This document shows, in pieces, positions 431 through 57,045 of a stretch of DNA of 64,000 nt. The stretch is from Eledone cirrhosa. Lineage: Eukaryota. The position numbers and the translations under genes are program-made. Location: positions 25,792,001 through 25,856,000 of the forward strand of contig OZ024749.1 in the NCBI GenBank assembly GCA_964016885.1. The letters are read 5' to 3'. Below the pieces are notes generated by a model that was not told the DNA's origin, did not search any database, and worked only from the letters and a program-made list of their open reading frames with translations. Within the stretch, counting starts at the first letter, position 1. Each line of letters starts with the position of its first letter.

Positions 431-567
431 CCAGAAATAGCCGTTGAAACGGCTTGAGCTCTGCCGTCGGGGTCATACTGTTTCCTATTACCCACTCTAC
501 TACACTAAGTATTGAGTACACTGGTGCGTTATGGTTCATCTGGTTCCTTACCACAATTCTTTCGTTA
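431..567 (+). mobile_element. Short TA-embedded element, family L (PLE pLTR-like, 3' half of a hammerhead)
   Basis: GAAA-cggc-ttgagctct-gccg-TC-gggg (stem III plus cleavage dinucleotide), then a conserved tail (ttcctattacccactctac...ccttaccaca...ttcgtta) into (TA)n. The same sequence recurs at about 2042, 2375, 42468, 44875, 56140 and 56860. Confidence 0.7.
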
Positions 568-2041
568 TATATATATAAATACACACACACACACACAAAT
601 ATATATATATCCCTCTTTCTCATCATCTATTTCTGCATTAAACACGTCATGTTCAAACCAAACAGAAAATGACTGAACCAGGTTTTAAAAATCCCTAAGC
701 TACGCCCAATATCAAGCTGGCGTCGCTATGACACTAGTGAAAGCTCCTCCGAGGCCTCTATACACGTTGACCTCACAGAAGAAAAATAAACATGAAAGAG
801 ACTCAGACAACCACTTTTATTGTTTTATTTTCTATATGTTTAGTGTGTGTGACACACAGTAACGTATTTCCAAAGAGCGCAGTGTTAATTCCATCGGCAT
901 ATTTTGTTCCCCGGCAACGAAAATCATATTGGTTGCAAAGGATGAAATGTCTAAGCTTTGGCCATAATCTTTGACCTATTTGTGAACTTTTGTTATTTTT
1001 TCTTCATATATATTAACTTAACTACGTTTTCAGCACAAATAACACACAACGGTATTGAAGATATTTCATTTTAATCAATTTCTTTTAACATGTCTAGCTT
1101 TGTTTTTTTTAATTTATTTATTTTTATTATTATTTCTCGTTTAATTTTCCCATAGCATCTGTTTAATTTGTCTTGTTTTTTTATATTTTGCATTTATTTT
1201 TCTCAATTTTAATTTACCACGTAATCAAACGTAACTTTACTTGTGATAAACCTAATTATGTGCAGACAGACATCATAATTAAAAATGTAATTTGAAATTA
1301 AAATAAAACATCTCGAGATTATTGAAATAATTAAAAATGATTTCAAGAATTTTTTTTTATTTTATTATATTTATATTTTTTTGGTTTGTTTCATTTATTT
1401 ATTTTTTTAATTTTATTTATTCTTTTTTTTTTTCTTATTTATTGTCAGCCGATTTCAAACACACAAGTCATTGACATTCCGGATTGTTGGAGCCGGATTA
1501 AATTTTAGTATCGATGTTTCAACGCTTCAGCTTTAAGAGATTATGGTAAAGGAAATTAATAATAAATTGAAGATTATAAAGAAAATAATTTGCTAAATTC
1601 GCGGGAACCGCAGGGAGTTCTGATTGGAATATGGCTTACAGAAACTAAATGAATTCCATCACGATTAATAATAGAATTCAATACAAAAGTTTATAGCTCC
1701 AATCATTTTATATTACTTTATTTCACATTTTCTATTTTCTTTACACTTTTTATTTCATTTTTTTCTGTGGAGTTTCCTGTCGATATTTGTCTGATTTTCT
1801 ATCTCGATATCAATTTATTTTTTCGAATTGTTTACCATATTTGTTGGTTTGCATTTTCTGTATGTGCATGACTACAACAGCTTGTCTAAATACCTAGCCA
1901 GGCACATTATCTCTCTTCTCTATCTTGAAAACAAAAGGCTTATGCCAAAGACACTGATATATGTTTTCCATTTCCCTTCGGAAATTAAATTGCCTTTAAA
2001 TATATATATATATATATATATATATATATATATATATATAT

Positions 2042-2531
2042 ATAGGAACGAGTAGGACCCCGACGTCTGAGCTCAAGCCGTTTCGACGGCTAATGCTCAG
2101 CCGTCGGGGTCCTACTCGTTCCTATTACCCACTCTACTACCCTAAGTATTGAGTACTTTGGTGCGTTATGGTCCACATGGTTCCTTACCACATTTCCTTC
2201 GTTATATATATATATATATATATATTTATACATATATATACATATATATACATACATATATATATATATATTTATATATATATATTTATACATATATATA
2301 CATATATATATATATATATATGTATGTATATATATATATGTATATATATATGTATAAATATATATATATATAAAACGAAGGAAATGTGGTAAGGAACCAG
2401 GTGGACCATAAAGCACCAAAGTACTCACACTTAGGGTAGTAGAGTGGGTAATAGGAACGAGTAGGACCCCGACGGCTGAGCATTAGCCGTCGAAACAGCT
2501 TGAGCTCAGCCGTCGGGGTCCTACTCGCTCC
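2042..2531. mobile_element. Two family-L copies in inverted orientation around a (TA)n tract, each with a fold-back end
   Basis: 2042-2205 and 2375-2531 are largely reverse complements. Each contains a local hairpin gaccccgacg...cgtcggggtc. Confidence 0.75.
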
Positions 2532-2570
2532 GATATATATATATATATATATATATATATATATATATAT

Positions 2571-2758
2571 AATTGTTTCTACTTTAGGCACAAGGCCAGC
2601 AATTACCCAGTGCATTACTGGCACTTTATTTTATCGACCCCGTAAGGATGAAAGGCAAAGTCAACCTCGGCGGGATTTGAACTCAGATCGTAAAGGGACG
2701 TAACTATGCTGGAAAGCATGGCGTCCGACCCTCTACCGATACTGCCAATCCACCGCCC
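2571..2758 (-). mobile_element. tRNA-derived SINE (cephalopod OR-like, Nin/Deu-type core)
   Basis: The minus strand starts GGGCGG, with A-box TGGCAGTATCGG, B-box GAGTTCAAATCC, core GCCTTTCATCCTTACGGGGTCGATAAA and an AT-rich tail. More than 20 copies are in the window. Confidence 0.85.
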
Positions 2759-2811
2759 TATATATATATATATAATATAAGATCAAAAGATGGTTAAAGG
2801 AGTTCCATGTT

Positions 2812-2878
2812 TTTTATTATGCGCATTTCAAAAACAAACATCATCATGCAATAATATTTATGTTTTCATCAGATAAAA
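2812..2878 (-). ncRNA. Minimal type-I hammerhead ribozyme (family A) at the PLE1 3' terminus
   Basis: ttttat-CTGATGA-aaacataaatattattgcatgatgatgtttgttttt-GAAA-tgcgca-TA-ataaaa. Stem I, the stem II hairpin, a palindromic stem III and the core are all intact. Confidence 0.85.
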
Positions 2879-2974
2879 CAGGAGAACATGATATGAAGGC
2901 TAAAAAACACTTGTGGATAGTGCAGTTTTAAATCAACATATGAAAAGTGGTTTTAGATTGATGTGTGATATTGG

Positions 2975-3390
2975 GAAAAAATATTTTATTTAGAGAGGGG
3001 GGGGGGGGGAAAGGATGAAAAGGGAAGGAGATGAGAGGGAGAGATGGGTGATAGAGAGAAAGAGATAGTTTTTATAACTGAGAGGAGATATATATTTTTA
3101 CATAGAGAGGTTGAAAACCGTTGGAAGATACTGTATAAATTAAAAATTTTGAAAATTAACGAAGGGAGGATATGTGCGAGGAAAAAATATTTTATTTAGG
3201 GAGGGGGGGGGATGAAAAAAAGGGGGAGGAGATGAGAGTGAAGGTGGAGAGGGAGAGATGGGTGATAGAGAGAAAGAGATAGTTTTTATAACTGAGAAAA
3301 AGATATATTGTTTTAACATAGAGAGGTTGGGAACCGTTTGAAGATAATGTATAAATTAAAGGAATTTGAAAATTAACGAAGGGAAATTAT
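2975..3390. repeat. About 215-bp imperfect direct duplication within the PLE1 3' UTR
   Basis: gagagggagagatgggtgatagagagaaagagatagtttttataactgaga...aaaattaacgaaggga occurs twice (about 3033-3167 and 3247-3384). Confidence 0.75.
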
Positions 3391-3873
3391 GTATGAAGAT
3401 AGAGAGAAAAAAATAATAATTGTGGATGAATATTCTAACGTCAAAAAAAGAAATGTATATATTGTGGCAATTTCAAAATTAACGAAGAGAAAAATTATTA
3501 AGGTTTGTGTGTAGAAGGATTTGAGAAAAATAATGTGAAGTTAAAGTTTGTATATTGGTTGAATTGATAATATATGCGAATAAAGAGTTAATATGTATTA
3601 ATAATGAGTTCGTTGATGGGGAGAAAAAAATAATAAATTAAGGATGAAATTGAGATTAAAAAGATTTATGATAGAGAGAAAAAATAATAATGATTGCGGA
3701 TGAATATTGTATATGTTATGATTTTACAAGGTGAAGATAGAATGAGGGTAATGAGTAAACAAGTATTATAGAGTGTATAATGCCCTTTAAAGTAAGGTAG
3801 ATGGGTATATTTTAAAGAGGTATATGTATATGTGCCTTTGAGAAAAGATTCTAAATTGATAAAGAATTGAATA

Positions 3874-55396: not shown

Positions 55397-56133
55397 ATGA
55401 AAGACGTAAAATAAGAAAATTATAAAAATTTACTTACTTACTAAAATTTCACTCCAACTAATTAGTTTCTGAAAGGGAATAAACATGGTTTCCGATTGGA
55501 ACAACATGGAGAAATATCCTTTCGTCATCAAGGAGATCTGTTCTCAGCTAAGTTCCCAGGCAAAGCGTGGACACAGGGAACTTATACAAAAATAATTCAG
55601 TGGATGGTAAAAAGCAAGCGAGGACTAGATTCTAGGACATTGAAAAAATCACTGCCTACTTAGTCGGTGGCGAATTCAAGAGAATCAATCACGTGACATC
55701 GAGGTCAATCAGTGAGGAGTGAGGGTGCTAATAAGACAGTAGCCTGGCTATTACTATGAAGCATAGCAGTAGTTTTGGCAAAATTTTGCTCAACAAAATA
55801 ATTTGGAGGTAATTATAAAGAATTAGTATATCTACCAACATATATATACATATGTATATCCATGCTAGCAAATATATAGGTGTTGTCTTAGTAACTTTGT
55901 GGTTCAATGCAAGGGGATACAGAACAATTATATGAAAGACGTAAAATAAGAAAATTATAAAAATTTACTTACTTACTAAAATTTCACTCCAACTAATTAG
56001 TTTCTGAAAGGGAATAAACATGGTTTCCGATTGGAACAACATGGAGAAATATCCTTTCGTCATCTGGGAGATCTGTTCTCAGCTAAGTTCCCAGGCAAAG
56101 CGTGGACACAGGGAACTTATACAAAAATAATTC
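55397..56133 (-). mobile_element. Retrozyme-like element: 535-bp unit with about 200-bp direct repeats, each holding an HHR (family I; 55452-55535, 55987-56070)
   Basis: ctcc-(TT/CA)GATGA-cgaaagg...cctttca-GAAA-ctaattag-TT-ggag. Each copy has a different single core substitution. Confidence 0.8.
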
Positions 56134-56139
56134 TGGGTT

Positions 56140-56233
56140 ATACCTTTTCCTATTACCCACTCTACTACCCTAAGTATTGAGTACTCTGGTGCGTTATTAT
56201 GGTCCACCTGGTTCATTACCACAATTCCTTCGT
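56140..56233 (+). mobile_element. Family-L tail fragment
   Basis: ttcctattacccactctactaccctaagtattgagtactctggtgcgtta...ccttcgta. Confidence 0.7.
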
Positions 56234-56344
56234 ATATAAATACATACATATATATACACACATATATATATTTCCATTTCCATATATATATATATATATA
56301 TATATATATATATCTAACGTCTAAAGTCTGTCTTAATCCAGAAG

Positions 56345-56588
56345 ACTCATTTGGCCGTTGCTTATCCCGATTTCATGGCGTGAAGCGACTGAGAGTACAA
56401 GACTTCCCCAAGGACAGGACGCCAGTCCATCTCATGGTTAAACCTCCAGCTATTGTTGGTACTCATTTTCTGCTGAGTATACTGGAGCAACGTGAAAAGA
56501 TGTGTTTTGCTCAAGAAAACAATACGCAACCCAGGAATCGACATTATGATCGTAGGTCCAACACCCTTACCACTAGGCCTCTAGACGC
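56345..56588 (-). mobile_element. Second SINE-like family
   Basis: The minus strand has ggcctagtggtaagggtgttgga (A-box-like) and gtcgattcctggg (B-box-like). Relatives lie at about 9285, 11980 and 60330. Confidence 0.6.
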
Positions 56589-56642
56589 ATATATATATAT
56601 ATGTATATATATATATATATATAGAGAGAGAGAGAGAGAGAG

Positions 56643-56786
56643 AGAAGTGGTTACACAACAGTTAGTTCACCATACCGAGAACAATTGTTTCACCTTAGCG
56701 GATCCTCAGCATTTACGAGCTGAGGATCCGCTAAGGTGAAACAATTGTTCTCGGTATGGTGAACAAACTGTTGCGTAACCACTTCT
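56643..56786. mobile_element. Palindromic element (family J) with an intact HHR at 56716-56753 (+)
   Basis: cgag-CTGAGGA-tccgctaaggt-GAAA-caattg-TT-ctcg. The mirror copy is at about 56675-56710 and a related fragment is at 39114-39178. Confidence 0.8.
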
Positions 56787-56859
56787 ACCTAACTCGTCTC
56801 ATGGACTGAGTGTTCTACCACTACGGATATTACCTTCCAGTGTTCTACCACTATATATA

Positions 56860-57045
56860 TGAAAAAGTATGACCCCGACGGCAGAGCTCAAGCCGTTTCG
56901 ACGGCTCTTTATGGACTAGCCATCGAAACGGCTTGAGCTCTGCCGTCGGGGTCATACTGTTTCCTATTACCCACTCTACTACCCTAAGTATTGAGTACTC
57001 TGGTGCGTTACGGTCCATCTGTTTCCTTACCACAATTCCTTCGTT
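56860..57045 (+). mobile_element. Family-L element folded back on the HHR stem II
   Basis: gaccccgacggcagagctcaagccgtttcgacggct...agccatcgaaacggcttgagctctgccgtcggggtc, then the tail. Confidence 0.75.

Follow-up and report, generated by a model that had tools for sequence, protein, structure and literature searches.

Penelope-like retroelements (PLEs) are known to insert in a pattern in which an inverted, 5'-truncated copy is present and a tail is found at one end only (PMC8557442). This tail is delimited by two internal start sites of the reverse transcriptase (RT), and both strands of the target are cut and extended (PMC11167929). PLE start sites of transcription have been located in the pseudo-long terminal repeat (pLTR) (PMC2377424, PMC8557442), and in the retrotransposons L1 and SVA an untemplated G is an accepted mark of a reverse-transcribed cap (PMC4859970). 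According to PMC8557442 and PMC11167929, it is still an open question how tandem and inverted PLE insertions arise and what role the PLE hammerhead ribozyme plays. We analyzed a stretch of 64,000 nucleotides from Eledone cirrhosa (contig OZ024749.1, positions 25,792,001 to 25,856,000; hereafter, the window) that contains repeated, palindromic insertions, termed family L, which share a 3' tail and lack the 5' half of a hammerhead core.

The family L copies are probably dead-end, head-to-head pairs of a 5'-truncated Hydra-type PLE. As judged from sequence, the core is likely missing because most template RNAs begin at a capped site in the stem II loop, inside the ribozyme, so that the RT runs off the RNA 5' end. 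This class of element, the shape of its insertions and a U3-A8 hammerhead core had been described before; the new part is the likely start site inside the ribozyme, together with its cap signature. Neither the reading of an extra G as a cap in PLEs nor a start site inside the ribozyme was found in the literature searched, which comprised main texts only and few subscription papers.

Parent element of family L

Positions in the element are numbered from the G of the hammerhead GAAA, set to 0 on the natural copy L059. The genome searched comprised 3.0 Gb in 1,796 contigs, and figures given as listed are hand counts from the first rows among the matches listed, not from all matches.

The initial annotation had suggested looking for a parent with a CUGANGA core and a linked PLE open reading frame (ORF). 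In three of the first 30 loci the sequence continued upstream with a stretch comprising ACCCC-TTGA(C/G)AA-G, the stem II sequence and a long loop, and a search with the upstream core stretch returned many longer copies that were 98–99% identical. One parent, L061, has two direct repeats (303 bp, 98% identical, 3,096 bp apart) in the order pLTR-ORF-pLTR, the pLTRs deriving from partial tandems. Between them lies a broken frame with RT (YRDD) and GIY-YIG motifs. The 5' repeat runs on through the tail into the element body; the 3' repeat stops at +42 and is followed by (TA)n, which is the insertion target of family L. Positions 3702–5787 of L061 covered residues 1–702 of a 710-aa relative at 38–53% identity, in three pieces with frameshifts and stops between them, and the overall identity to full-length relatives was 38–60%. 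The parent has a single ORF of about 700 codons, in which the RT is followed by a C-terminal GIY-YIG endonuclease. Its protein carries RLRWR, HSDKTG, CNCPDRSTC (a CxCx5C linker), CNLC and CKH, and its endonuclease has no CCHH. The GIY-YIG match in Pfam was weak (E 0.022, below the cut-off), and searches of Pfam and of PDB sequences with the RT pieces gave nothing significant, despite the YRDD motif.

By these protein motifs, in the definition of PMC8557442, the family L parent is assigned to the Hydra clade as an abundant PLE of 3.1 kb. It resembles the clade in RW(R), DKT, CxCx5C, the absence of CCHH, CxxC, CxH, ORF size, the pLTR hammerhead and the (TA)n target, whereas its core is mostly U3-A8 instead of canonical and its unit of 3.1 kb compares with a clade size of "generally <3 kb" (PMC8557442). 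Family L is a new member of the Hydra-type PLEs, although it may already be among the supplement entries of PMC8557442.

In L061, a possible 50-nt intron was noticed at about 3565–3616 (+78 to +127), with a GT donor at +78, a pyrimidine tract and an AG at +127; it spans the tail end and precedes the ATG at +213. Introns in the 5' untranslated region occur in other PLEs.

Hammerhead of the parent

The core of the parent is mostly UUGANAA (U3-A8), with 5,516 exact matches genome-wide versus 12 for CUGANGA. On these counts a canonical CUGANGA parent was rejected as the main source, so that the expected PLE with a linked ORF and a hammerhead was found, but mostly with another core. When 60 parents were grouped by the 3-8 pair, 45 had U3-A8, 10 had C3-G8 and 5 were read as C3-A8 mismatches; the 10 C3-G8 parents had been picked by the CUGANGA search, and their share is therefore a selected one. 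In the modeled structure the parent fits a type I hammerhead with three stems, a conserved core, a 3-8 Watson-Crick pair and a GUC site. Unconstrained folding gave the hammerhead three-way junction for the L017 parent (-23.2 kcal/mol), and for the L150 parent it favored a different fold by 7 kcal/mol, in which GAAA lies in a hairpin loop. Starts joined to (TA)n near the predicted cut (about 74 loci) fell at +23 in about 45 loci, at +21/+22 in 14 and at +24 in about 6. This small excess at +23, blurred by CpG decay and TG repeat variants, hints at self-cleavage in vivo.

The hammerhead of the Schistosoma PLE Cercyon (PMC4209133) is similar in its compensatory U3-A8 core, short stem I, long stem II and opposite-strand pairs; family L differs in a full stem III of 5–6 bp and in a loop II of about 33 nt that holds the likely start site. 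Under the definition used (bioRxiv 10.64898/2026.07.22.740005), a non-LTR retrozyme consists of tandem units each with a complete hammerhead; the short family L copies are core-less inverted pairs or singles.

Head-to-head pairs with two 3' ends

Each palindrome consists of two 5'-truncated copies joined head to head. The element has two alternative 3' ends, one at +121 with an 80-nt tail, which is the start of the element body, and one at +42 without the tail. Long copies also end at either +42 or +121, and many stop tail-less at +42. The outer end of each palindrome is a second 3' end of the element, in place of the palindromic 5' end that the initial annotation had assumed.

Loci L001–L063, which were chosen by similarity to the queries, entered the pairing and parent profiles and were left out of the breakpoint count. 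Exactly one arm carried the tail in 48 of 48 short pairs (the partner was tail-less in 44 and scored "other" in 4), and the same rule held in 9 of 11 long pairs, two being unclear. The subfamily barcodes of paired arms matched exactly in 17 of 48 pairs, compared with 4.7 expected, and most of the others were one or two letters apart. The tail-less arms of L023, L083 and L129 carry 70–190 nt that the tail arm lacks, as do those of the window copies at 2042 and 42468 on a smaller scale. Short fill-ins resembling snap-back products were present at some junctions (L182). A recurrent mismatch of TGTTT in the tail arm against TTTTT in the partner, considered as a sign of two templates, proved to be an artefact of the query, since such tail arms number only 18 genome-wide and tail-less arms fall outside the pattern.

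These pairs agree with the known PLE insertion unit (PMC8557442, PMC11167929) in head-to-head truncation, in the presence of the tail, a stretch bounded by two RT start sites, on a single arm, and in the AT-rich target. They differ in that the tail is about 80 nt, not 30–40 nt, and in that the inner ends are not random truncations, about 86% of them lying within a 20-nt zone at the likely start site. Twin priming of L1 (PMC4859970, PMC11702581) is alike in that an inversion arises when the second end of the target primes on the RNA, and in the extra G at the complete 5' end; in family L, however, the second priming site is fixed and the complementary DNAs (cDNAs) overlap almost fully, which yields palindromes.

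Inner ends of the arms

Breakpoints were counted in the window, in 80 arbitrary 10-kb tiles and in 60 of 63 regions surrounding the first matches listed for an 18-mer (-8 to +9). The 128 arms counted are those reaching -7, shorter arms being excluded by the anchor. The initial annotation had expected a non-random distribution, and this was borne out: the inner ends are strongly non-random and clustered in the stem II region, with 110 of 128 arms ending at -7 to -27, one at -35 and one at -56, and with 16 reaching the core. The loss rate was 6.9% per nt at -7 to -27, compared with 0.35% per nt at -28 to -60 (2 of the remaining 18 arms). Exact genome-wide counts, made with patterns that differ in mutability, fell from 59,027 for the GAAA region to 36,165 for sequences extending to -18, 9,690 to -25 (part of which are partner-arm look-alikes) and 5,516 with the core.

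Candidate start site and extra G

A core promoter of RNA polymerase II (Pol II) is expected to carry a YYAGT word, which resembles an initiator, and a TATA-like word some 30 nt before it. The parents read TTAGTC or TCAGTC with the A at -18, none of the 60 has a G at -19, and a TATA-like word (TATTTATT, TATTTAAA or variants) lies 29–32 nt upstream of A(-18) in 56 of 58 scored parents. By the initiator and TATA consensus sequences, A(-18) is a candidate Pol II start. Inspection by eye against the consensus revealed no convincing word of the downstream promoter element or motif ten element type.

The base at -19 was other than T in 14,243 arms, and the first 100 listed comprised 40 G, 53 C and 7 A. 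The core was present in none of 18 G(-19) arms sampled. For starts joined to (TA)n at -18 (TATAT-S-AGTCC, 210 matches), 88 of the first 100 listed had G; the corresponding controls gave 29 G in 44 matches at -17 and 2 G in 5 matches at -15 (Fisher p = 0.0045 for -18 versus -17). At the partner-arm junction CTAATT-R-AGTCC, where a G is templated by neither arm, the first 100 listed contained 70 G and 3 A. An extra base on both arms, with 0–2 nt between them, was seen in 44 of the first 50 listed loci (289 in total), a partly confounded figure. We did not take this double-G count as decisive, because priming on a nearby TCTG gives the same letters.

The Penelope promoter of D. virilis (PMC2377424) is alike in that the start lies within the pLTR and the upstream repeat supplies the promoter. 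It is described there as internal and aligned with TATA-less promoters of long interspersed nuclear elements, whereas family L has TATA-like words 30 nt upstream and a likely start inside the ribozyme.

Sister family N

A sister PLE family in the window, family N, provided an independent test of the reading of the extra G as a cap. It is represented by a fold-back at 15141–15264 and by a longer, parent-type copy with a TATA box near 7863. In 8 of 8 family N parents, a TATA-type box (mostly TATAAATA) lies 29–30 nt before a base sited 5–7 nt upstream of CUGAUGA. The base preceding this start is C in 100 of 100 parents listed, and it is G in 71 of 100 listed short copies joined to (TA)n (130 in total). 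The control at +1 gave 17 matches, 13 of them explained by G-starting parents; 3 were of the matching subtype. The family N site is outside the ribozyme hairpins and has no nearby TG for snap-back, and a cap therefore fits it better than pausing does.

The family N parent pattern had 4,451 forward and 1,926 reverse matches, which suggests a tandem array somewhere in the assembly.

Proposed origin of the palindromes

In the mechanism that we propose, Pol II would start at A(-18), inside loop II, as the genomic sequence suggests. Cleavage of a (TA)n target on both strands by the endonuclease would leave two ends, of which one would prime at +121 and the second at +42, near the 5' end of the messenger RNA (mRNA). 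Synthesis of both cDNAs (about 140 and 60 nt) would proceed to the cap, often with addition of C and then A; after trimming, the cDNAs would be joined either together or to the target DNA, in some cases with short fill-ins by snap-back. About one arm in eight includes the core, and the templates of these arms would be read-through RNA or the 3' pLTR in the mRNA.

On balance we lean, though only slightly, towards a more general reading of the same sequences. The PLE core promoter would lie within the hammerhead, its TATA-like box forming part of the stem II 5' strand and transcription starting in loop II; the mRNA would open with a disarmed half-ribozyme and hold a whole one only in its 3' repeat; two RTs working near the mRNA 5' end would reach the cap and produce mostly minimal palindromes; and the junction G would map PLE starts in any family. 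If so, two fixed RT starts near the mRNA 5' end and run-off at the cap would account for tens of thousands of mini-palindromes, PLE start sites could be marked from sequence alone, and the sparing of the mRNA by the 5' ribozyme copy would be explained.

Several results weigh against a capped start at A(-18). The wall of inner ends is not one base wide: exactly -18/-19 accounts for 21 of 128 arms, -12 to -17 for 55 and -20 to -27 for 24, so that the model requires trimming, coincidental matches and minor starts further upstream. The arms within one insertion are not independent, and the nominal significance of the loss-rate contrast is overstated. In the other register of the (TA)n junction, ATATA-S-AGTCC, 44 G and 56 C among 100 listed matches give no excess of G; a C before AGTCC belongs to the parental sequence of one subfamily, and TACA occurs commonly as a variant of the repeat. 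Snap-back onto a nearby TCTG could add C or CA in family L, confounding the TATAT-S and double-G counts. The TATA-like word of family L matches the consensus weakly and, being located in the stem II 5' strand, could owe its conservation to RNA structure. Finally, the extra G is present in none of the window copies.

The initial annotation had attributed the breakpoints to ribozyme hairpins acting as pause or self-priming sites during reverse transcription. In the pausing version, the RT would stall or fall off at an RNA structure (the long stem II, or an AGCCGU-CGAA-ACGGCU hairpin in RNA or cDNA) and add non-templated bases before the cDNAs are joined. In the minimum-energy fold of the parent, the ends do map to the 3' side of the extended stem II; they are spread over about 15 nt, and the alternative AGCCGU-CGAA-ACGGCU hairpin dominates the fold of the short RNA. 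However, inner ends accumulate, with a non-parental G, at a site that resembles an initiator, as expected after run-off at a capped RNA end. Pausing explains neither the restriction of the G to one position nor the presence of a TATA-like word 30 nt before it, and in family N this G occurs at a site 5–7 nt upstream of CUGAUGA, outside the ribozyme hairpins. We consider pausing an unlikely main cause, which may still contribute.

Self-priming, in which one cDNA folds back, is copied to +42 and is joined to the target by TA microhomology, would account for the many near-symmetric junctions with loops of 0–10 nt, for arms of one subfamily and for the short snap-back-like fill-ins as in L182. As a general route it is largely refuted and appears quite improbable: +42 is also the 3' end of long tail-less copies, and the arms of 44 of the first 50 listed loci, 0–2 nt apart, are too close for a hairpin, a figure that is partly confounded. 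Moreover, tail-less arms can hold 70–190 nt missing from the tail arm (L023, L129 and L083, with smaller stretches in the window copies at 2042 and 42468), and self-priming on the partner cannot build arms holding sequence that the partner lacks. A small non-autonomous element, resembling a short interspersed nuclear element (SINE) or a miniature inverted-repeat transposable element and spread from a small number of master copies, with deletions arising afterwards at the tip of the hairpin, would suit the very high copy number, the fixed outer ends and a few recurring junctions. Yet junctions vary widely, each subfamily of the long parent has the same short forms, and there is a continuum of lengths up to multi-kb pairs that obey the same tail/no-tail rule, so that this origin seems very improbable.

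Family L copies in the window

The initial annotation had listed copies at 431, 2042, 2375, 42468, 44875 and 56860 and a tail-only copy at 56140. All seven stand at these places and share the 3' tail; an additional arm at 44726–44782 had been overlooked. When the 56860 copy was used as a BLAST query in the window, it matched the main family L pieces at E 1e-33 to 1e-52, compared with a best E of 0.009 in 20 shuffled windows. As had been claimed, the 5' half of the hammerhead core is absent: neither CUGANGA nor UUGANAA was found in any of the seven copies on either strand. Rfam gave no match in the window. Inner or outer ends of every copy except the tail-only one adjoin (TA)n. The arms are as follows.

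430..567, + strand: single arm that begins at -16, includes stem III, GUC and GGGG and reaches the end of the tail at +121, flanked by (TA)n runs
2042..2094, - strand: tail-less arm (+42 to -10) of a head-to-head pair
2095..2204, + strand: tail-bearing arm (+12 to +121), partner of the 2042..2094 arm
2374..2481, - strand: tail-bearing arm (+12 to +121), junction as in the 2042 copy, probably a local inverted duplicate
2482..2534, + strand: tail-less arm (-10 to +42), partner of the 2374..2481 arm
42468..42579, - strand: tail-bearing arm (+10 to about +121)
42585..42641, + strand: tail-less arm (-16 to about +40), with a 5-nt filler before the arm
44726..44782, - strand: extra arm without tail (about -14 to +42), from a diverged subfamily
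44874..45012, - strand: tail-bearing arm (-17 to the tail end)
45012..45068, + strand: tail-less arm (about -15 to +42)
56132..56233, + strand: tail-only copy (from about +21/+27 to +119)
56857..56918, - strand: tail-less arm (+42 to -19), with two substitutions near the inner end
56917..57046, + strand: tail-bearing arm (-8 to +121)

The inner ends thus lie at -16 in the single arm at 431, at -10/+12 in the 2042 and 2375 copies, at -16/+10 in the 42468 copy, at about -15/-17 in the 44875 copy and at -19/-8 in the 56860 copy. The copies at 2042 and 2375 are 95.6% identical over 158 bp and share an identical, unusual junction; they therefore probably represent one event that was duplicated locally, rather than the separate insertions that had been listed. 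The central hairpin at 44875 and 56860, which had been taken for stem II, is formed by the 3' strand of stem II and part of the loop, paired with their own inverted copy.

Two of the 18 genome-wide tail arms with the rare TGTTT variant fall in the window (471–490 and 56950–56969), which suggests local copying or conversion. The density of family L is uneven, with 27 clusters in 264 kb around the window compared with 4 in tiles that cover 200 kb of the three largest contigs.

Neighboring fold-backs

The 56860 copy adjoins a fold-back of another hammerhead family at 56646–56850, which has a CUGAGGA core and a palindromic minimal stem III and is centered just upstream of the core. Further long fold-backs were found at 27210–27540, 13781–14201, 55061–55329, 58485–58775 and 45627–45887, several of them with CUGANGA...GAAA motifs. 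Their centers lie 50–100 nt or more upstream of the core, and the position of the center relative to the ribozyme is therefore family-specific. Copies of an abundant repeat, which we take to be SINE-like, are present at 2575–2760 and 48480–50630, some of them as inverted pairs.

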